Below, in pieces: positions 27,488 through 38,673 of a stretch of 64,000 bases of DNA. Every line of letters starts with the position of its first letter. Within the stretch, counting starts at the first letter, position 1. This stretch comes from an uncultured candidate division Zixibacteria bacterium. Its GTDB lineage: Bacteria; Zixibacteria; MSB-5A5; RBG-16-43-9. The notes beneath the pieces are model-generated. The model made no database searches and had not been told where the DNA came from. It saw nothing but the letters and a program-made list of their open reading frames with translations. The DNA lies in the NCBI GenBank assembly GCA_963713865.1, contig OY970208.1, positions 128,001 to 192,000 on the forward strand, written 5' to 3'. The translations under genes and the position numbers were made by a program.

Positions 27488-30198
27488 CTATTTCAGTAGG
27501 CTCATCTTAGCGGTCTTGGTGAAAGAGCCAGCCTGTATCCGGTAAAAATAGATACCAGACCCAACCTCTTCGCCCCGGTCGTTTTTACCCTCCCAGTAAA
27601 CATTTCTTACCCCTGCACTCTGGAATTCATCTACTAACACTTTTACTTTTCTGCCCAGAATATCATAAATGGTAAGCTTAACATAAGCATCTTCAGGCAA
27701 TCCATATTCTACGCGGGTCTCTAAGTTAAATGGATTGGGATAATTTTGACCTAAGAAGAAGTTTTCAGGGAGATTTCCACTTATAGAAGCTTTATCCGGG
27801 GTTGGGGCTATCTCACACAGATTCATTCGACCGGTGGTTACACTTAACTCTGGGCTCATATAGCTGGTGTCACCTTCTGAATCGAAGTAAAAAACATTAA
27901 GCCGATAAGCCTTTTGGGGTTCCAAGCATAGAGTATCAGCCAAAGTATATATCGGTCCTTCATATCTTAACACCCCAGTTCCACTGATCTTGATCACATA
28001 ATAGTTAACAGGTAGTTTCTGGTTTACAGGCATTGACAAGGATAGAAATACCCTGTTTGAATATCCGGTACATTCAAGTGGAGGCCCGGTGCCATAAAGA
28101 GAAGGTGTTGGTGTTTGTGATTCATAAGAGGCTGGGATAACCTTTGGATAACCATAGCTCACACATTCTACAGTAGCTTCAAAATCGGTAGGAGGGTTAG
28201 GTCTGGCTTTAATGACCTTTTCATTAGAATAATCGGAAACCTGATGAACATTATGTGACTTTGCTCTATAAGTATATCTTTCACTACCAACCAAATTGGT
28301 ATCAATCCAGGAGGTATAATTAGAATCCAGGGATGCTTTTTCTGACCATAGATTACTGGTGGCGTCCTTTCTTTCGAGTTTATAGCCGAGTTCGTTTATA
28401 TTAGGATCTGTCCAGCCTACTGAAATCCAGGGAGATGCACCGATATAACTTCTTGTGGCTCCTACAGTAGAAGCCAGAAGCTTAGGCTCACCTAAAACCG
28501 AATAAGCAAAACTTACATTCTCAGGTGCACAGGGAACAAAGCCCACATAATCACCATCTAAGGTCCATACTTCGTAGACATAGGAAAATAAAGTAGCAGT
28601 TGTTGACGTTATGCTACCTGGAACTGCATCGCAAAAGCCCATACCAAAGTTCGGACTTTCAGGAGAATAGCCATTTGTTGCATCTCCCAGTCCCCAGAAC
28701 ATAATTGGTACTCCAGAACTCCCTTGACAGGGTTATATTTTTTCTTGCCTCATATCTTTTCACAAAATAAACTCCTGGCGCAAGACCCGGGGTATCAAAG
28801 AAGGCAGTAGTATATACACCAGTATTCCCTGCCCGGTAAGCTCCAGAAGCACTGAATTGAGCAAAATAATTAGGATATCTCAAAAGCTCAAAAGCCTTAC
28901 GTGCATTAATCCGACCAGTGCCATACCAAGAATCCCAACCTGGATCGCCCTTGTCATCTGCTGATATTCTGATTATTTGCTCAATATCATCATTATACAG
29001 GCCACTTTTATAACCTTTGAGCAAGCTTGCCAGAACCGGTTACAAAAGGCGCAGCCATTGAGGTCCCGGCTAAATATCTGTAAAAAGGCGACTGATACCA
29101 ACAAGAGTAAATGTCACGGAGGGTATTATTAGGATATGGGTTTATTCCGCCAGGCGCTACTACATCAATATGATTTCCCGTGCTTGAATAGGAAGCGCGT
29201 ACATCGCCATCGGTTGTTGCACCAACAGCAGTTATCCCCTGACCATATGCAGCAGGATAAATTATGGGATTCCCTCTTTCATATTCATTGCCCATAGATG
29301 CGACTGATATCCTATTCATCTTATAAGCATATGCGAAAGCGCTTCTTTCCAGAGTACTATAATTGGTACCTCCATAACTATTATTTAATACTCCTGCACC
29401 CTCATTCACTGAGCTTATGATACCATTATAAATCTTGGTCAGATCTAAGTTGCCCTGGTCGTCTGTGCAGTTTTTAGCGATTATTTTAGCATTCCAATCA
29501 ACCCCAGCAATTCCAGTATCGTTATCTGTTTTTGCTGACGCAATACCTGCCACGTGCGTCCCGTGTCCCCAGGAATAGGTAGCATCACCTGAGACTTTTC
29601 CATATAAGTCAGGATGATTGCCATATACCCCATCGTCTATTATAGCTATTTTGATATTGGGGTTTCCGGTGGTTATCTCCCAGGCATCGGTAGCTTTAAT
29701 ATCTGCACCTTGAGTACCACCAGATTGACCAGTATTTTTCAACCCCCACTGGTTGGCGAAATAAAGATCATTTGGAATTATAGGAGAATGTATCTGCCGG
29801 GTTCCATTTGGCTCTGCAAAGATAACACCGGGAAGAGTATCTAAGACATTTGCAACAAGTTTGTTCGCTACTCCCTCTGGAAGCTGAATTTTAAAGACTA
29901 AGGAAAGGTCTAATTTTTTAATCGGCTCACCAGAGGGCGAGATTGCAATAGTATCTTTTAGGTCAAAATATGGAAAAGCTTTAAGGATAAGCTCTGGAGT
30001 GAAGCTGATTAAAACCGAACGGAGCGCATCAGGGTTTATAATAACAGAGTCTAAGGGTGCGGAAATTCTCCCTTCTGGCAGGATAATTGTTCCTGGCTTT
30101 ACCATAACAATTACCTCCCTTTCTGCCACAGAAAAAACAATACTATATGCCAGAAGCAACAATATAATTATCTGCCAGATAATTTTTTTAACGGACAT
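27488..30198 (-). CDS. Secreted S8 (subtilisin) serine protease with FN3-like and C-terminal FlgD-Ig/T9SS-CTD-like domain; two +1 indels (~29034, ~28698)
   Basis: IAIIDDG, GHGTHVAG and GTSMAAP triad. Corrected frames read VTGLASLLKG and NYVWGLGD. Tail LGQNYPNPFN...SGIYFYRI...KMSLLK. Confidence 0.88.
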
Positions 30199-30436: not shown

Positions 30437-31396
30437 TTACTTCCCAAAAGTCAACTGTTTTTTATTACTTCCATCTGCATTCATTATAAATATCCTTCCA
30501 TAGTCTGGATGGACGTATGTGTAAGCTATGTATCTCCCATCCGGTGACCAAACTGGCTCATCCCCGCCTTCAGGGGTTAACATTTTTAAATTCTTACCAT
30601 CTGAATCCATTACATATATCACAGGTGCTGAATAATACATAGAACTAAAAGCTATCTTCTTCCCGTTCGGGGAGAAAACAGGATATCTATTGTCATGGTC
30701 TTTTAAAAAAGTCAACTGTTTTTGATTGTTTCCATTGGTATCTGAAACAAATATCTGGGGGCCGGTCCCTGGATACACAATGTAAATAAGTTGAGAACCA
30801 TCCGGAGACCAATCAGGGAACCGACCTGTGAAGGTATTGGGGACCATTTTCTTATCCAATCCATCCGTATTTATTATATATATGCCCCTTATTTCAGGAG
30901 GTTCTGTAACATCAAGGGCTATCTTCTTACCATCCGCTGACCAGTCAGGGAAGAAATTTCTGCCCTCAAAGGTTAATTGAGTTAAGCTGTCCCCATTTAG
31001 TTTTATCTTAAAAATTTGAGCATAATCTGAGAAAGCTAACCAGTTGCCATCCGGGGAAAAGTCAGGCGCATAAGTTCCAGCACCTCCATAGAAGAATCTC
31101 TTGTCAGTCCCATCTACGTTTATCAGAAATATCCCTGCTGGATCGTCTGGGTAGTCTAAACCTCCATGGGTGTAAGCAATAGTCTTTCCATCTGGTGACC
31201 AGGCAGGCTGCATATCAGTATATCTAGGCCAGTAATGTGGTAAGCCATCATCTGGGTTAGTGGGCTTATTCTTAGAGCAGCAAAGTGAAATTAAAAAGAG
31301 CAGGAATAATAAAAATAGCAGTGGATGTTTAAGTATTCTTTTAGTTTGAGTAAATGGAGGGTCCGAAAAGGAAAAACTCGATGATTGCATAGTCAT
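30437..31396 (-). CDS. TolB-like PD40 beta-propeller lipoprotein
   Basis: Repeated P.WSPDG..IA motifs; hydrophobic signal ending in SLCCSK. Confidence 0.85.
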   Translation of the reverse strand: MTMQSSSFSFSDPPFTQTKRILKHPLLFLLFLLFLISLCCSKNKPTNPDDGLPHYWPRYTDMQPAWSPDGKTIAYTHGGLDYPDDPAGIFLINVDGTDKRFFYGGAGTYAPDFSPDGNWLAFSDYAQIFKIKLNGDSLTQLTFEGRNFFPDWSADGKKIALDVTEPPEIRGIYIINTDGLDKKMVPNTFTGRFPDWSPDGSQLIYIVYPGTGPQIFVSDTNGNNQKQLTFLKDHDNRYPVFSPNGKKIAFSSMYYSAPVIYVMDSDGKNLKMLTPEGGDEPVWSPDGRYIAYTYVHPDYGRIFIMNADGSNKKQLTFGK

Positions 31397-31492
31397 TCCC
31401 TCTTTCTTCAGTTTTAAAAGGATTAGCTGACTTCCTTATCAAAATAAATCCCCCCACGTAAAAAAGTCAAGAACTTTTTTCAATAATTTTTT

Positions 31493-31533
31493 TCAATAAA
31501 AAAAGAGAGCTCCTGTAGGGGAAGCTCTCTTTG
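31493..31533 (-). terminator. Intrinsic terminator, copy 2 of the 41-bp direct repeat
   Basis: TCAATAAAAAAAGAGAGCTCCTGTAGGGGAAGCTCTCTTTG, directly after the Lys-rich micro-ORF. Confidence 0.8.
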
Positions 31534-31555
31534 GGCGCAAAAAACCTAAAGGCTT

Positions 31556-31609
31556 TTATTTCTTTTTTCCTTTTTTAGCCTTCTTGGCTGGCTTTTTCTT
31601 CATCGGCAT
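31556..31609 (-). CDS. 17-aa Lys-rich micropeptide MPMKKKPAKKAKKGKKK (not in ORF track)
   Basis: Very strong SD AAAGGAGGTGA 8 nt before ATG; TAA stop followed by a terminator. Confidence 0.7.
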   Translation of the reverse strand: MPMKKKPAKKAKKGKKK

Positions 31610-31695
31610 CCTGGGTTTCACCTCCTTTCCTACAGATCCATTTTCAGGACCAGGTATAGGGTGAAAAAGTTGGCTTGGTTTTGTATTCGTGCCAA

Positions 31696-32088
31696 CTACT
31701 TATTTATATTTTTTACCTCCAGACTCTCCTTACCGAAATTTATCAACATTCCCAAAGGTAGTTTGGTAGCTTTTAGAAAGCTTTTCATCTTGGTTACCTC
31801 TGATTCATTCATCGGCTCTCCGGCTTTGATCATTACTATGATGCTGTTCTTCACCACAAATTCTAAATCATATTCTCCAGCTACACTTCCCTTATAAGAG
31901 AGTTTTATATTTTTCTTCCTTTCATATTCTATCTTTCTTAAATCGAACTCATAAGCTAAAGCCTGGCTATAAGCTGATTCCTGAAACCCCAAACCCATAT
32001 TTTTATGCACCTCTAAGGCGGCTTCTAATATCTGTTCTTGCAGTTCTTTTAAAGACATCTCCTTCTCTTTTACTGTTAAGCTGTTCAT
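31696..32088 (-). CDS. GxxExxY-family (PD-(D/E)xK-fold) protein with degenerate catalytic motif
   Basis: AALEVHKNMGLGFQESAY and LKAT...GMLINFG. The usual D...ELK and QxxxY read E...MIK and KMKSF. Confidence 0.85.
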   Translation of the reverse strand: MNSLTVKEKEMSLKELQEQILEAALEVHKNMGLGFQESAYSQALAYEFDLRKIEYERKKNIKLSYKGSVAGEYDLEFVVKNSIIVMIKAGEPMNESEVTKMKSFLKATKLPLGMLINFGKESLEVKNINK

Positions 32089-32117
32089 TCACTATAATAC
32101 TTTACAATTTAAAGAGT

Positions 32118-32133
32118 TGCAATTATTGTGCCA
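32118..32133 (-). promoter_or_regulatory. Consensus sigma54 -24/-12 promoter
   Basis: Minus strand TGGCAC-AATAA-TTGCA, a perfect match. Confidence 0.9.
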
Positions 32134-32161
32134 GTATTTCATTTGGAGCTAACTTACTGTA

Positions 32162-32295
32162 AATCAATCAGTTATAAATTTCCATATATCGTCAATCCTT
32201 TCCTGTCTGCAACAATATTGTTGCAACTGTCTAATGTATTGACTATAAAAAGGCTATAGTTGTGCAGTTTTAAACTCTGCAACAAAATAGTTACA
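32162..32295. promoter_or_regulatory. IHF site and two palindromic enhancer (UAS) sites
   Basis: AATCAAtcagTTA (32162-32174); TGCAACAATATTGTTGCA (32208-32225, perfect palindrome); TGCAACAAAATAGTTACA (32278-32295). Confidence 0.75.
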
Positions 32296-32547
32296 AAAAA
32301 AATGTAATGTTGCAGAAAAATTAAAAATCTATTCTAAGGGAAATCTGGAGTATAAACCTTTAGGTTTATTAGCGTAGAGCTTAAAGAAATGGAGTGTTTC
32401 GCTATTGATAGAACTAAAAATGAATTCTCTATATTTCATACATCGAAGATAAAATAGTAAAGCTAAAGTCTTCACCAGGATCCTGCAGACAAGACCTTGA
32501 TGGCTTTACACTCCCATATGTCTTTATAGAAAGTTTTTATAAAAAGA

Positions 32548-34341
32548 TCATTTATACTTTTTTAAAAGTCTTTGCAGTTCTACCCTGTGCATCCCGGCTT
32601 CTTTGGCGGCTTGTGAGACATTATTCTGATTTCTCTGGAGTAAATCCTCTAAAAAATTTTTTTCTACTTCCTCTGCTACTTTCTTTCTCAAAGATTTCAG
32701 CTCCGGATAATTCTGGGCAATTTTGATCCCGGCATCCATTCCTGAACCATCGAAGATGTTTTTTGGCAAATCATCTTTGGTTATCCATTCGCCCTTGGCT
32801 AAGATCACTGCTCGTTCGATGATATTTTCCAGCTCACGAATATTACCCGGAAATCTATATCTTGATAGAATGTTTAGAGTCTCAGGTTCTATCCCTTTGA
32901 TCTCTTTGTCAGATTTTTTAGTGAATTTCTGAGCGAAGCTCTCGGCTAAAGGAGCGATATCTAATTTCCTCTCTCTCAAGGCAGGAAGCTTGAGGTTAAT
33001 AACATTAATCCGATAATAAAGATCCTCTCTGAACCTATTTTCTTTGACCAGAGTAAATAAGTCTTTATTGGTAGCTGAAATAATCCTCACATCTGACCTT
33101 TTGACTTTATTGGAACCTAAAGGCTCGAACTCGTGCGACTGGAGGAAGCGTAAAATCTTCACCTGGAGAAGCGGGCTCATCTCTCCGATTTCATCTAAGA
33201 AAATAGTACCTCCATTAGCCGCCTCGAATTTCCCTAACTTTCTCTGGGTAGCACCGGTAAATGCCCCTTTCTCATATCCAAACAACTCCGACTCTAAAAG
33301 GGTTTCCGGAATTGCGGCACAGTTAATCGGCACAAAACTTTTTCGTGAACGGCTGGAGTTGAAATGAATGGCTCGCGCTAAAAGTTCTTTGCCGGTTCCG
33401 CTTTCCCCTTCGATTAACACCGTAGCCTCAGTATCTGCAATGTCTGCTACAGTTTTCAGGACCTCAACCATCTGAGGACTGTTTCCCAGGATCTCATCGA
33501 ACTTGAACTTTCCCCTTAAATCTGCTAATAATTTTTCCTCTGATTCCTTCAGCTCCATAAAAAGAAGATTATTCTCCAAAGCCACTGAGGTCCTCTCCGC
33601 TAAAGAACTCAGAAGCTCGATATCCCCGGAAATAAAAGGCTCCCCCTCCCCGCTATCTTCCAAGTAGATCATCCCCAAGACATTTTCCCTGGATTTAAGC
33701 GGAACGCAAAGAAGAGATTTTGTTCCCTTTGCCCAATCCTCTTTCTCCTCGATTTCTTTATAGATGAACTGCTGGATCAAAACGTTGTTGCCGGTGGAAA
33801 GAACCAGGTCTGTCAAATCAGATTTAATCTTTTCCTCGCTTTCCTCCAGCGCCTTTTTCTGTTTATCTTTAGCCAGCTTTAATTTTAAATTCTTATTCTC
33901 GTCATAAACCTCTAAGAATCCTTTATCAGCTGAGAAGATGTCTATGACCGAATCCAAAACTGCTTCTAAGAGGAGATTAACGTCTCTCTCGGCATAGATT
34001 ACGTTGGAAAGCTCATACAGAATCTGATAAATTCTTCTCTCTTCCTCCTTCCCCTCAGATTCTTTTTTAAATTTCTGATATTCCTGGTTGGTTTTATTCA
34101 GCCCCTCCTCTAAAGAATCCTCTAAAGCCAAAATCCTCTTATCCAGATCATCCAAACCCTGGATAATCTTTTCGAAGGAAGTGGAAAGCTTCGCCGGAGA
34201 GAGGTTTGATAATTCGGACAGGTCATTATGAACTGTATTTAAGCTTCGATAAAGAGCTTTAATCCCTTTGCCGCTTAAATTAGCCAAGGCTTTGAAATTT
34301 TCTTCAAAACTATCTGACCTGGATTCTTCTTTTCTCCTCAC
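32548..34341 (-). CDS. Sigma54-dependent enhancer-binding protein (coiled coil + GAF + AAA+ + HTH)
   Basis: [66 protein letters not shown]. Start probably GTG 34341. Confidence 0.93.
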
Positions 34342-34655
34342 GTTTGCAATATTATCTTCAAGTATAATTATTGTCAACAGAAAAATGTCGTGGGATGATG
34401 GTTAACATGTAAATATCTCTCTTAAAGTAGCAGGTCATAGCGAGCGATCCGCCTTTGGTGGAGAGCGAAGCAATCCCTTTAACACATCTGAAACGGATTG
34501 ATTCACCCGCAGAACTCTCAATGACAGTTTCTATCCCATCTTGGTCAAAGTAGACTTGTGTTGAGGTAACATTTACCTGTTAGTTGATTTTTTCCTCTTT
34601 CCGATTAACGAATCCACGTATCAAATTTAGGCAGTTCAAAACGGGAATTAAGTCA

Positions 34656-35543
34656 ATGCAAAAGGTTTTAATCAACCAGCACAAAAGAGAAGACGTCTTT
34701 AGATGCGGGCATAAGTCCCATTTTAGATTTGAGAAGAACGTCTCGGTCTATCACGTTCTCAAGGAGAAAAAATGTTTTCCTCAGGGATGTATCTATTTTG
34801 AGTGGAAATGCAAATTATTGAATAAAGGAAACGGCTGTCCGAAAAGATTCAAGCATGTGGGCAAAAGCTGCTTTTCCTGTAAGCATTACTTCGAGGAGAA
34901 GCTCTGCTATCAGCCGGAGGTTTTGCTTCCGGAAAAGGAGTTCAAGACCTTCCAGCGGGAGTTAGAGGACTATGATGAATGGTTAGACGGGCTTTCCGGG
35001 AAAAAGGTAAACGTTGGTGGGATAATAAACTCGATCAAACCTCATTTCAGAAAAATAATTTTGTATAAAAAAGAACAGATGAGTTTCCTGGGATTTTTAA
35101 TCAGTTTCAAATCAGGATATATAGATCGGGTTTTCTTCCGGGATTATTTCTATCTGAACATTCCCGCAAAGACTCAGGAGAATTATAATTTCATTCGCGG
35201 AGATAAAATGGATTTCTGGGCAAAATTAAAAACGGATCGAGGCAGGACTGTTTTTTATAATCCCAGAGAAATTGAGATCATCCATGGAAGTTCTGAAGAG
35301 TCTTTTTCAGAAGCTCCAAAATGGGATTTCGGTGAAATCTTAGTAGCCAGAAAAACCGGAACCGAGTTCGAGGTTCAGCCGGAAAAATGTTTTGCTTGTG
35401 ATAAGGGGATTTTGCTGGACATAAGCGAGGAGGATTCAAAGCGGAAAAGAAACTATCGCCACCTTTTCTGCCTTGAAGGGATAAAAAATCCTGAGAACTG
35501 CATCTATGATTTGAGAAAGAAGTTGACCCTGAACCCGAGTTGA
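34656..35543 (+). CDS. Cys-rich hypothetical protein with a possible central OB-fold
   Basis: 12 Cys in N- and C-terminal clusters (CFPQGC, CFSC, CFAC) around a beta-rich core; ATG 34656 is in the ORF-track frame. Confidence 0.65.
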   Translation: MQKVLINQHKREDVFRCGHKSHFRFEKNVSVYHVLKEKKCFPQGCIYFEWKCKLLNKGNGCPKRFKHVGKSCFSCKHYFEEKLCYQPEVLLPEKEFKTFQRELEDYDEWLDGLSGKKVNVGGIINSIKPHFRKIILYKKEQMSFLGFLISFKSGYIDRVFFRDYFYLNIPAKTQENYNFIRGDKMDFWAKLKTDRGRTVFYNPREIEIIHGSSEESFSEAPKWDFGEILVARKTGTEFEVQPEKCFACDKGILLDISEEDSKRKRNYRHLFCLEGIKNPENCIYDLRKKLTLNPS

Positions 35544-36080: not shown

Positions 36081-36767
36081 ATGACTCTCAAGGTTTCAAA
36101 AATAACAATTATTTTATTTTCCATCCTGCTGATCTTTTTCAACCTAAGTATCTCTGAAATCGAAAAAGACCCAGATGCCTTTACCATCGCTCGTTTGAAA
36201 TACGGAGGGGGTGGAGACTGGTACTGGGGTTCTTCTGCCATCCCCAATATGCTCAAGTTTTTAAAAGATAATACCAATGTCCCGGTAAACGAAGAAGAAG
36301 TCAGGGTAAACATAATGGACAAGGAGCTTTTCAATTATCCTTTTTTATTTCTAACCGGGCACGGCAACATAAAATTCTCAGATGAAGAAGTAGAAAGGTT
36401 AAGGAATTATTTTATTCACGGAGGATTCTTATTCGCCAATGATTCCTATGGGCTGGACAAAGCCTTCAGAAGAGAGATAAAAAAAGTCTTCCCGGAAAAA
36501 GAATTAATTGAGTTACCGTTTAGTCACGGGATTTATCATTGTTATTACGATTTCCCCAGCGGTCTCCCCAAAATCCACAAACACGATAATAAGCCTCCAC
36601 AGGGATTCGGGATAATTTACGAAAACAGGTTAGTGGTCTTCTATGTCTATGAATCAGACATCGGAGACGGCTGGGAAGACCCCCAGGTCCACAACGACCC
36701 CCCGGAGAAAAGAGAACAGGCATTGAAAATGGGAGTGAATATTATTACCTGGGTGTTGGAGAATTGA
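36081..36767 (+). CDS. DUF4159-family protein
   Basis: ARLKYGGGGDWY, YPFLFLTGHG, GGFLFAND, DIGDGWED and ALKMGVNI motifs. Confidence 0.9.
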   Translation: MTLKVSKITIILFSILLIFFNLSISEIEKDPDAFTIARLKYGGGGDWYWGSSAIPNMLKFLKDNTNVPVNEEEVRVNIMDKELFNYPFLFLTGHGNIKFSDEEVERLRNYFIHGGFLFANDSYGLDKAFRREIKKVFPEKELIELPFSHGIYHCYYDFPSGLPKIHKHDNKPPQGFGIIYENRLVVFYVYESDIGDGWEDPQVHNDPPEKREQALKMGVNIITWVLEN

Positions 36768-36810: not shown

Positions 36811-38673
36811 ATGGTTGAAGAACAAAAAGGAATATCCTCAGAAGTAGTTTTCTTTCTGGGTGCCGGAGCCTCAGTACATGCAGGTGTCCCGCACACATTT
36901 GCCTTCGTGGAACAATTCAAGAATTCTCCTTTGTTAGATGAAAATGATAAGAAGACGATAGAGTTTATCGAAACTAGACTTCTCCAATGGAAAAAAGAAA
37001 GAGAAGAATATCCAAGAATCGACATTGAATTATTAATGGAGACTTTGGACAAGTTTACCAGAAAAGATGATGAGGCTCTGTTGCAGTTCTATGAAATCAA
37101 AAAGTTCTTATTAGAAGATTACCAGTCAAAAATATCTACTCTCTTAGACAAGATAAAAACTTTTGTAAAACAAAAAACGATAGTGCCTGAGGAAAAAATA
37201 AAATATCTTGAGCCTTTTCTTGGTTTCATTGAAGAATATCATCCGTTGGACATTTTCTCGGTAAACTACGATATCTGTATTGAACAGTTTTGTAATCTGT
37301 ATAAAAAAAGTTATAGAGATGGATTTGAGGTAGAGTGGAATCCAAGTGTTTTTACAGCCTCAAATATCGATATTCGCCTTTATAAACTACACGGTTCTAT
37401 TACCTGGTATAAGACAAGTAGTGGTGGTTTTTTGAAATCAATTATCAAAAGTGACAACGAGGAAATAGAGACATTAATGGGCCAGAAAGCTCAGTCTTTG
37501 ATGCTTTACCCTATGCGTAAATGGGAATATGCTGAGCCGCTATTAGAAAACTTACTGACGTTGAAAAATAAGCTACAATCAGAAAGCTGCAAATATGTTA
37601 TTGTGGTCGGTTATTCTTTTAGAGACGAATATATTAGAGATATCTTTTGGGATGCAGCAAGAAGGAACAAAGAGTTAATTTTAATTCTTGTGGATCCAAA
37701 TGCCTTTCAGATTTATTCGGATAAACTTGAATACTATCCTGATAAGATCCCTTCCTCATTAAAAGGAAAAGTCATACCTCTTCCATTTAAATTTGAGTTG
37801 GCATTTCCGGACCTAAAAGCAGAATATCTAACTAATTTGAAAAAGGGGGTCAATTATTTAAAACAAGCTAAGACGAAGGAATTGCTTGGCGAGGTACTAC
37901 CAAATTGGGTTGATTGTCTTCAACCATTAGCAAATTGTCAATATTTAGACAAGTTAGATGAGTTAATTAATGACAAGATAGGTTTTGTAAAAGTATCGAA
38001 GGAGACCGATGGCATTATCCATAGATTGACCGATGTACAGCTATTCAATTACGGAATCAAAGACAATATTTTGTTGAATCAAGAAATACATTTTAGACGC
38101 GCTCTTGCTCTTTACATCAACGATAGAAAAGAAGAGGGCTATCAGGCCTTTCTGTATCTGGCTGCTAATGTTTACTTGATTCTTTATATGAAACTATCGG
38201 TCGAGGTTATGCGTAACCGAATTGATCTAAGACCGAATACAAGTACTAACGGGGGTTATCATCCTGCTAAAAACTTATATGAGTTGTACTCCAATTTCAT
38301 CATCTACGAATTTTCATCTGACTCTAACCTCTTTCCAAAAGGCGAAACAGCGGATAAGTTCTTCAGAATGAAAAAGTATCTCCCCTTATATGAAAAGATA
38401 AGTAACTTGATGGACTTCGTGACTCAAATAAGCTATTATCTATCAAATTGGAGAGATAATGCAGTAGATTTTGTTAAATATATTGAACTGCGGAAAGACA
38501 AGAATCCTGAAGAAGCTGAAAAGATAGCACGTCTTTATCCTCAAGTTGCAAATGTATTTGAGCAGCAAAATCCTGAACACACTGTAATAACTCAGATGAA
38601 AGATTCAGTGTTGAAGATTGAAAGAAAAATCATCAAGGATATTCTTGAAAAATTTGTACCTAAGTTCGACTGA
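36811..38673 (+). CDS. SIR2-like (SIR2_2) NADase-domain protein with unknown C-terminal region
   Basis: FFLGAGAS..AGVP, SVNYD, LYKLHGS and VVGYSFRDEYI motifs. Confidence 0.88.
   Translation: MVEEQKGISSEVVFFLGAGASVHAGVPHTFAFVEQFKNSPLLDENDKKTIEFIETRLLQWKKEREEYPRIDIELLMETLDKFTRKDDEALLQFYEIKKFLLEDYQSKISTLLDKIKTFVKQKTIVPEEKIKYLEPFLGFIEEYHPLDIFSVNYDICIEQFCNLYKKSYRDGFEVEWNPSVFTASNIDIRLYKLHGSITWYKTSSGGFLKSIIKSDNEEIETLMGQKAQSLMLYPMRKWEYAEPLLENLLTLKNKLQSESCKYVIVVGYSFRDEYIRDIFWDAARRNKELILILVDPNAFQIYSDKLEYYPDKIPSSLKGKVIPLPFKFELAFPDLKAEYLTNLKKGVNYLKQAKTKELLGEVLPNWVDCLQPLANCQYLDKLDELINDKIGFVKVSKETDGIIHRLTDVQLFNYGIKDNILLNQEIHFRRALALYINDRKEEGYQAFLYLAANVYLILYMKLSVEVMRNRIDLRPNTSTNGGYHPAKNLYELYSNFIIYEFSSDSNLFPKGETADKFFRMKKYLPLYEKISNLMDFVTQISYYLSNWRDNAVDFVKYIELRKDKNPEEAEKIARLYPQVANVFEQQNPEHTVITQMKDSVLKIERKIIKDILEKFVPKFD

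Follow-up and report, generated by a model that had tools for sequence, protein, structure and literature searches.

A stretch of 64,000 nucleotides from an uncultured Zixibacteria bacterium (contig OY970208.1, positions 128,001 to 192,000; hereafter the window) carries, in the region 31493..34377, a gene module whose parts all lie on the minus strand. Read in the direction of transcription, it consists of a gene for a sigma-54 enhancer-binding protein, two putative upstream activator sites, a predicted sigma-54 promoter, a gene for a protein of the GxxExxY/PDDEXK_3 family, a very short lysine-rich open reading frame (ORF), here called the micro-ORF, and an intrinsic terminator. The host chromosome is a single contig of 2.72 Mb with 40% G+C. 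A first-pass annotation of the window had described these parts as a self-contained module in which a dead nuclease relative is accompanied by a 17-aa lysine-rich peptide. Comparison with related genomes supports co-transcription of the GxxExxY gene and the lysine-rich ORF from a conserved sigma-54 promoter.

Regulator, upstream sites and promoter

The activator gene (32548..34377, minus strand) encodes a 609-aa sigma-54 enhancer-binding protein, an assignment based on Pfam and NCBIfam profiles, an AlphaFold2 (AF2) model of residues 1–290 and the co-occurrence of its orthologs with the module. The protein is made up of a helical hairpin (residues ~1–129), a GAF domain (~131–269), an AAA+ domain containing GAFTGA (296–462), an AAA lid and a Fis-type helix-turn-helix (HTH) domain (569–608). 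Pfam matches were obtained to Sigma54_activat (PF00158, E 1.1e-71), GAF_3 (E 1.8e-14, residues 134–269) and HTH_8 (E 3.8e-08), and the translation shows both the GAFTGA and the Walker motifs. The AF2 model, with a predicted local distance difference test (pLDDT) score of 82.5, contains two long helices (2–58 and 61–129), a GAF fold and a long linker helix, consistent with the coiled-coil/GAF activator of the first-pass annotation.

In its domain layout the protein resembles GAF-sensor regulators of the NifA, FhlA and NorR type, which combine GAF, AAA+ (GAFTGA) and Fis-type HTH domains, and whose regulons have paired palindromes ~90–180 bp from a -24/-12 promoter, with the regulator usually beside a single target operon. 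It differs from them in its extra N-terminal helical hairpin, in its non-metabolic cargo and in its NCBIfam scores, which reach the cut-off of no named equivalog (NifA comes first, at 390.6 versus 528.85 bits). PADLOC models of the RtcR/PspF type matched over the AAA+/HTH part alone (residues 283–609). An Atlas search with the N-terminus (top score 0.80) was uninformative on the sensor, and the nearest solved GAF domains gave no ligand clue. The genome itself encodes rpoN (Sigma54_DBD, E 1.5e-55) and contains 20 sigma-54 AAA+ domain matches, 18 of them at E<=1e-59.

Upstream of the GxxExxY gene lie the two 18-bp palindromes that the first-pass annotation had pointed out: the perfect proximal site TGCAACAATATTGTTGCA (32208..32225) and the distal site TGCAACAAAATAGTTACA (32278..32295), which has one mismatch. 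Both putative activator sites are conserved in relatives. They are 70 bp apart, and TGCAACAATATTGTTGCA starts 92 nt upstream of the first base of the promoter. Their number alone is not above chance, with two such palindromes seen in the 64-kb window versus 1.17 expected, and the whole genome holds 53 degenerate matches with <=1 mismatch, or 0.008 per 400 bp. The sole pair spaced 60–80 bp apart in the 2.72-Mb genome, however, is the TGCAACAATATTGTTGCA/TGCAACAAAATAGTTACA pair. The promoter TGGCACAATAATTGCA (32118..32133, minus strand), with its -24 GG and -12 GC, is, as had been claimed, a perfect TGGCAC-N5-TTGCA, and it is the only exact TGGCAC-N5-TTGCW match in the window; transcription would be expected to start near 32107. 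Genome-wide, TGGCAY-N5-TTGCW occurs at 15 sites versus 1–4 in five mononucleotide shuffles. Between the activator sites and the promoter, the previously proposed integration host factor (IHF) site was recovered as AATCAATCAGTTA (32162..32174, plus strand), a match to the E. coli consensus at a genome background of 0.01 per 130 bp.

Conservation was assessed in the window's own genome and 40 relatives (41 genomes); the compared genomes are metagenome-assembled and of uneven quality. An ortholog-level match to the GxxExxY protein (48–100% identity) was present in 32 of the 41, several of which also carry unrelated copies of 27–40% identity. Among the 20 loci inspected from these genomes, one being the window's own, the -24/-12 motif precedes the gene in 19 and the twentieth has a one-mismatch version; all 20 carry a lysine-rich ORF with the GGAGGTGA Shine-Dalgarno (SD) sequence and a hairpin with T-run. 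At least one activator-type palindrome (one mismatch allowed) was likewise found in 20/20 loci, and a pair ~70 bp apart in 12/20. A separate scan of species-representative genomes yielded 38 loci, comprising 35 of Zixibacteria type (47–98% identity) and three outgroup loci from Caldithrix, Kiritimatiellae and Chlamydiota (32–36% identity). All 35 related loci have the sigma-54 promoter, 25 of them exactly and 10 with one mismatch, and all 35 have the lysine-rich ORF; none of the three outgroup loci has either.

As a control, 60 metagenome loci with GxxExxY relatives were considered, of which 59 could be used; the remaining one gave no hit on the strand expected. A sigma-54 promoter, like a lysine-rich ORF with an SD, was detected at only one of the 59, L080, which encodes a 52%-identical relative. 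This locus carries AAGGAGGTGAT, a 14-aa MKKAKNKAKKGKNK ORF, a terminator and, upstream, the tail of an activator gene. Downstream frames rich in Lys/Arg were open at 6/59 control loci, five of them Arg-rich and taken as spurious.

The activator gene adjoins its target in 17/35 loci, which by their genome handles belong to families f1 and f4 and to more distant lineages. In family f2 it is not adjacent: a full-length ortholog (60–63% identity) lies on another contig or, in the single-contig genome G029, 498 kb away, and no sigma-54 promoter or palindrome was found within 1.5 kb of these f2 activator genes. The module is thus not always self-contained, contrary to its first description. The f2 targets nevertheless keep TGTAAC-N6-GTTACA sites at ~-283 and ~-213 from the start codon, with the promoter at ~-100. 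In a distant lineage, whose activator is 45–46% identical to that of the window, TGCGAC-N6-GTCGCA occurs twice in perfect or near-perfect form, 68–69 bp apart and ~116 and ~185 nt upstream of the promoter. A constant layout with co-varying arms (TGYAAC versus TGCGAC) is what a cognate regulator–site pair predicts. Taken together, these data make the regulatory part of the module, namely a GAF-sensor activator, its palindromes and a sigma-54 promoter, very probable. A further element was observed in f2 loci (e.g. L053–L065), whose 5' untranslated region, past the sigma-54 promoter and ~52 nt short of the start codon of the GxxExxY gene, contains a conserved TGTAACA(G/A)AGTTATGACA that resembles an activator half-site.

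At the level of the phylum, a GxxExxY ortholog (E<=1e-25) was found in 48 of 257 genomes (at least 80% complete), representing eight of 19 sampled families; no ortholog was found in f7 (0/21), f10 (0/96), f14 (0/14), f16 (0/29) or f20 (0/14). Among the matches listed, 43 of the 48 ortholog genomes have a match to the activator's sensor domain that starts in the first 40 residues, and G037 has an adjacent one starting at residue 79, which brings the count to 44/48. The four without a listed sensor match (G021, G027, G028 and G033) are all fragmented assemblies, with the G021 ortholog truncated where its contig ends. For the remaining 209 genomes, the listed matches include such a sensor in G005 and G024 only; in G005 the contig ends inside the activator gene.

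The GxxExxY protein

The first gene downstream of the promoter (31696..32088, minus strand) encodes a GxxExxY/PDDEXK_3 protein of 130 aa counted from M1, identified by profile matches, an AF2 model and alignment. Its scores lie well above the family cut-offs (PF13366, E 3e-30, 105.4 bits versus 22; TIGR04256, E 3e-32, 111.4 versus 35), and the G..G..Y signature is kept. The conserved start is M11 (32058), giving 120 aa, and many f2 loci have an in-frame stop immediately 5' of M11. The AF2 model, built from a 47-sequence alignment, reached a pLDDT of 94.8 and adopts a PD-(D/E)XK core, which agrees with the fold assumed at first pass. The top structural matches were Cas4 SSO0001 (4ic1; Foldseek E 1.5e-4; VIA Z 8.3, root-mean-square deviation 3.1 over 98 residues), restriction endonucleases, the lambda-exonuclease family and Hjc. 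All of these scores are middling and indicate the fold, nothing narrower; no solved structure related by sequence to the protein was found.

The catalytic positions were compared in an alignment of 236 single-domain family members, numbered from M11 and divided into canonical members (<44% identity, n=114), distant orthologs (44–70%, n=64) and close orthologs (at least 70%, n=58). The canonical members largely retain E27 (107), D66 (110), E76 (100, with D in 4), K78 (109), Q90 (88) and Y94 (106). In the close orthologs, position 66 is E in all 58, position 76 is M in 53, L in 2, V in 2 and A in 1, and is never E or D, K78 is present in 56, position 90 is K in 56 and position 94 is F in 58. The distant orthologs have D (47), Q (15) or E (2) at position 66, S, K, L, Q or A at position 78 and K90 in 61, and E76 in L080 alone. 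The ExK glutamate is accordingly missing in 121/122 orthologs, versus E or D in 104/114 canonical members. The window protein has E66, M76-I-K78 and E27, and does not form the catalytic D...(D/E)xK triad. All three substitutions noted at first pass (D to E, ExK to MIK and QxxxY to KMKSF) hold in the alignment, the D-to-E change being conservative.

In a maximum-likelihood phylogeny, whose backbone is unresolved, a single clade (support 99/97) unites all orthologs with L080, P0162 and P0142 and excludes the canonical members; within this clade, the catalytic positions are occupied by different residues from one subclade to the next. Metagenome contigs scanned with P0142 yielded nothing. The gene is evolving under strong purifying selection: dN/dS (the ratio of non-synonymous to synonymous substitution rates) against the window gene was 0.013–0.053 in the five pairs with unsaturated dS, the other five pairs being saturated. 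The 120-aa protein is 75–80% identical between families whose activators are ~61% identical.

The GxxExxY family is large, with 7,169 representatives at E<=0.001, and its members are often multi-copy and scattered. The ortholog clade departs from this pattern, with a single copy in this genome and with conserved synteny, promoter and partner gene, and from the canonical family in lacking the ExK glutamate and in having K for Q. The domestication proposed at first pass stands to this extent: a fixed, single-copy ortholog with degenerate catalytic positions is held under strong selection. From the residues at these positions, we consider the protein likely to be non-catalytic in this lineage. 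A comparable case is SEN15 of the tRNA splicing endonuclease, in which the nuclease fold is kept, the catalytic residues are lost and conservation is strong; unlike SEN15, however, the GxxExxY protein has no evident catalytic partner subunit, and the two share no sequence relationship and only a middling structural similarity (Z 5.5). The GxxExxY protein had no PADLOC match. An acidic-chaperone role was also considered and was rejected, since orthologs and canonical members do not differ in net charge.

The lysine-rich micro-protein and its genomic setting

The micro-ORF (31556..31609, minus strand) encodes MPMKKKPAKKAKKGKKK, 17 aa followed by a stop codon, and is preceded by the extended SD sequence AAGGAGGTGAA (31617..31627, minus strand), of which GGAGGTGA is kept upstream of the ORF in relatives. 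The lysine-rich micro-ORF with a near-perfect SD of the first-pass annotation was recovered, but its 17 aa represent one of the shortest forms of a pentapeptide-repeat micro-protein that spans 13–146 aa. In the 35 related loci it measures 15–146 aa (median 28) and is built of (T/A/V/P)(A/T)KKK units in variable copy number; forms elsewhere include 13 aa in G064 and 34 aa in G218. The ORF begins with MPAKK, MPMKK or MAVAKK in 34/35 loci. At L055, which lies on the same contig as L020, a 2-nt insertion right after the start codon replaces the lysine-rich frame by an Arg-rich one of 38 aa, through a genuine frameshift or an artefact of assembly.

Substitution patterns carry a coding signature. 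In ten same-length pairs, differences at codon positions 1, 2 and 3 numbered 30, 28 and 102, and 82 synonymous codon changes were counted versus 50 non-synonymous ones. In data pooled over related loci, AAG makes up 0.69 of the lysine codons in the micro-ORF versus 0.43 in neighbouring genes of the same loci, and no A-run exceeds 8. Third-position bias and AAG bias together point to a translated frame, and translation of the peptide is, on these grounds, highly likely.

A strict pattern of SD plus MPAKK matched 35 of the 257 phylum genomes, all of them in the module families f1, f2, f4 and f18 and none elsewhere; extra matches away from the module occurred in f1 and f4 genomes. One such ORF, on contig C1 of G000 (~643,870–644,003, minus strand), encodes a 34-aa protein, MPAKKKASYKCPKCGYTSSKAGKCCGAPMKKISK, with an equal extended SD, an MPAKKK start and a Cys-rich (zinc-ribbon-like) body. 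A genome scan for further lysine-rich micro-ORFs was noisy and revealed no second ORF of the type. On the same contig (~1,939,483, minus strand), a 31-aa Arg/Lys-rich ORF with an SD, MPCGRKRKKHKIKTHKRKKRLRRDRHKKKLR, was observed, which we take to resemble small basic ribosomal-type proteins.

The micro-protein shares Lys/Ala/Thr-rich pentapeptide repeats of variable number with H1-like bacterial proteins such as Hc2, the Burkholderia H1-like protein and AlgP. Searches with the corresponding profiles (PF07382, NF038052 and NF038053), for which the 17-aa window peptide is too short, gave weak matches for longer forms, the best of them with the 146-aa form: Hc2 (PF07382) at E 1.3e-3 and Burkholderia H1-like (NF038053) at E 2.1e-5. 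That longest form, encoded at L071 (3427–3867), consists of RTTKKRTAK-type repeats and is the only one to reach this value against the H1-like model. Repeat number also varies between strains in Hc2, which is reported to measure 165–237 aa (PMC2848022). Unlike Hc2, most forms of the micro-protein are only 13–64 aa long, and they always lie 3' of a PD-(D/E)XK gene under predicted sigma-54 control.

The GxxExxY gene and the micro-ORF are separated by an 86-nt spacer (31610..31695, minus strand), in which single-sequence folds predict a GTTGGC..GCCAAC hairpin with a T-run just past the GxxExxY stop codon and a TTTCACC/GGTGAAA stem that would sequester the SD of the peptide. The gap from stop codon to SD is 9–20 nt in f4 and the distant lineages and 40–150 nt in f1 and f2, where a stretch further 5' that contains CACC can base-pair with the SD and, in f2, with the start codon as well. 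Either arrangement would tie synthesis of the peptide to translation of the GxxExxY gene. Beyond the micro-ORF, the terminator claimed at first pass is present (31494..31532, minus strand) as a 12-pair stem with a 7-nt loop (hairpin 31532..31502) followed by a T-run, and equivalents follow the ORF in relatives. A role of the ORF as a lysine leader-peptide attenuator for downstream genes was rejected because a strong terminator follows it and the downstream genes differ between lineages. An Rfam scan of 31300–32600 returned chance-level matches only.

The setting of the module varies with lineage. It is flanked by divergent nuoA/B/C and by genes for VanZ, histidyl-tRNA synthetase (HisRS) and aspartyl-tRNA synthetase (AspRS) in a distant lineage, retains VanZ and AspRS nearby in f4 and adjoins a Cys-rich ORF and a DUF4159 gene in f1. 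The context looks chromosomal and vertically inherited rather than that of a mobile island. In the window, a 319-aa Cys-rich ORF (34584–35543, plus strand) is divergent from the activator gene; it has no Pfam, NCBIfam or PADLOC match and lies beside the activator only in the window's own family, where its identity is 69–88%. A DUF4159 gene (36081–36767) directly precedes a gene (36811–38673, plus strand) for a 620-aa SIR2_2 protein (PF13289, E 1e-09), which matches PADLOC models of Argonaute-associated SIR2 proteins (Aga_SIR2, E 2.5e-33) and is a possible defence-type candidate. Downstream of the terminator, a PD40/TolB-like beta-propeller lipoprotein candidate (30437–31396, minus strand) and a subtilase-like ORF (29008–30198, minus strand) do not accompany the module in other families.

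Mechanism, alternatives and significance

We propose that a subset of Zixibacteria has inherited the module vertically as a dedicated sigma-54 regulon, whose products, a non-catalytic scaffold and an oligo-lysine micro-protein, would act on a polyanion; for this reading as a whole, we regard the chances as evenly balanced. The GAF-sensor activator would bind the two 18-bp palindromes ~70 bp apart and, on some ligand or signal, would switch on the -24/-12 promoter, yielding one bicistronic mRNA that would end at the terminator. The first product would be a GxxExxY/PD-(D/E)XK-fold protein that lacks the catalytic ExK glutamate and may serve as a binding scaffold. The second, an xAKKK-repeat oligo-lysine micro-protein, would be very strongly translated, at a higher yield than the scaffold, and the joint production of both would be secured by tight or hairpin-mediated translational coupling. 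Such coupling, together with the strict off-state of sigma-54 promoters, would be fitting if leaky expression of the product did harm. Both products might then act on a cellular polyanion, most probably DNA, such that the signal would lead to coating or compaction, by analogy with histone H1 tails, chlamydial Hc2 or protamines. DNA compaction as the actual outcome is doubtful at present. A stronger form is a 'protamine switch', in which the GAF-sensing activator would set off a burst of oligo-lysine that condenses the chromosome or another nucleic acid, in obligatory coupling with the domesticated, dead nuclease-fold protein; the latter would load, target or buffer the polycation, the two behaving like a scaffold and its detachable basic tail. 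This would make the module a two-part nucleoid-silencing or dormancy device for which no bacterial counterpart has been described; we consider it unlikely.

Several observations weigh against the proposed regulon or parts of it. A sub-lineage retains catalytic residues: L080 and P0162 keep D-ExK, and G064 (f12) has D..E-V-H. The first-pass label of a dead nuclease consequently holds for the degenerate positions found across the clade, but not for these members, which still have the D and the ExK glutamate. Catalysis may persist in this sub-lineage, and its loss may be secondary to recruitment; because these members retain catalytic residues, the Q-to-K/R change and recruitment into the module seem to predate loss of the ExK glutamate. 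The GxxExxY orthologs are near neutral (mean net charge +0.2 versus +0.7 in canonical members) and are not obvious DNA binders, and none of 268 retrieved proteins fuses a GxxExxY domain to a lysine-rich tail. The H1-like profiles do not reach their cut-offs (19.3 versus 40 bits for PF07382 and 24.9 versus 80 for NF038053, with the 146-aa relative only), and the likeness to Hc2 and H1 reads as a compositional resemblance. The frame of the micro-ORF is shifted at L055. The SD-sequestering stem is missing in lineages with a gap of 9–20 nt, and in f2 it is invariant and offers no covariation evidence for or against. The IHF-like site is weakly conserved, in 5/35 related loci only. Finally, 209 of the 257 phylum genomes do without the module, which is therefore dispensable, and the figures given here are counts and not tests, the related genomes not being independent samples.

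The polyanion might also be RNA. The micro-protein would then be a factor of hibernation or stress that attaches to rRNA or ribosomes, as small basic ribosome-associated proteins do, with the PD-(D/E)XK-fold protein as an adaptor to RNA or the ribosome. Polycations bind RNA as well as DNA, the structural neighbours of the GxxExxY protein include non-catalytic folds in RNA machines (SEN15, Z 5.5; mitoribosomal proteins, Z 7.4 and 6.9), and the module of the distant lineage lies beside the HisRS and AspRS genes. These structural scores are, however, middling and tied with many nucleases, the window's family does not retain the tRNA-synthetase genes as neighbours, and a repeat number that varies (15–146 aa) suits a non-specific coat over a defined ribosomal site; we consider an RNA target distinctly unlikely. 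Sigma-54 regulons are often nutrient-linked, and a starvation-linked switch could accordingly serve a peptide that organises a polyanion such as polyphosphate granules. The Lys/Ala-rich repeat composition would fit such a peptide, and the H1-like AlgP of Pseudomonas is reported to space polyphosphate granules (PMC9239181). Yet none of the loci examined showed a link to ppk or ppx, and the role of the PD-(D/E)XK scaffold would be left unexplained, which makes this explanation highly improbable.

That the GxxExxY protein is still an enzyme with non-canonical residues, or that it forms a toxin/antidote or defence-type pair with a harmful polycation, receives a comparably low rating. An acidic first catalytic position (E in 58/58 close orthologs, D or E in 49/64 distant ones), the D-ExK of the L080 type and a tight off-state promoter with translational coupling, which would suit a harmful product, all speak for it. 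On the other side, subclades differ freely at the ExK glutamate, at the lysine and at the helix glutamate, the absence of a PADLOC match for the GxxExxY protein gives no sign of a defence role, protein and peptide show no charge complementarity, and the single copy, stable chromosomal synteny and very low dN/dS are unlike mobile defence or toxin–antitoxin genes. The least probable explanation is that only the GxxExxY protein matters and that the A-rich tract is an RNA element acting in cis, as a stabiliser, as an Hfq-type ARN site or through translation-dependent attenuation. AAR lysine codons are also ARN triplets, the ORF has just 17 aa in the window and its frame is shifted in one locus; but an extended SD at fixed spacing with an MPAKK-type start in 34/35 loci, the concentration of differences at third positions (102 versus 30 and 28), the enrichment of AAG with avoidance of long A-runs, and a strong terminator ahead of lineage-variable downstream genes, which leaves nothing to attenuate, argue for a peptide.

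The proposed sigma-54 regulon with a scaffold and an oligo-lysine micro-protein as its output combines parts of known kinds. A full-text literature search, which took in few of the subscription journals, found nothing on an arrangement of activator, GxxExxY gene and lysine-rich peptide, in line with the first-pass view that this is not a recognised system; for the GxxExxY family, it turned up incidental mentions only and no functional study. As far as the searched literature goes, the combination, the domesticated clade and the micro-protein have not been described.

For the large GxxExxY family, the ortholog clade offers a handle: its members are fixed, regulated and single-copy, and have a constant partner gene. 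The micro-protein, at 13–64 aa in most genomes, is of a size at which genes often escape routine annotation, yet its coding signature is clear; it may represent a pared-down bacterial counterpart to H1 tails or protamines. The module is also a clean regulatory test case, with a single sensor, a pair of palindromes and one promoter ahead of two genes; it lends itself to a heterologous host, and the natural co-variation between HTH lineage and site arms (TGYAAC versus TGCGAC) is of use there. If silencing of the nucleoid or of ribosomes proved true, an uncultivated phylum would possess a programme for stress or dormancy of a new kind.

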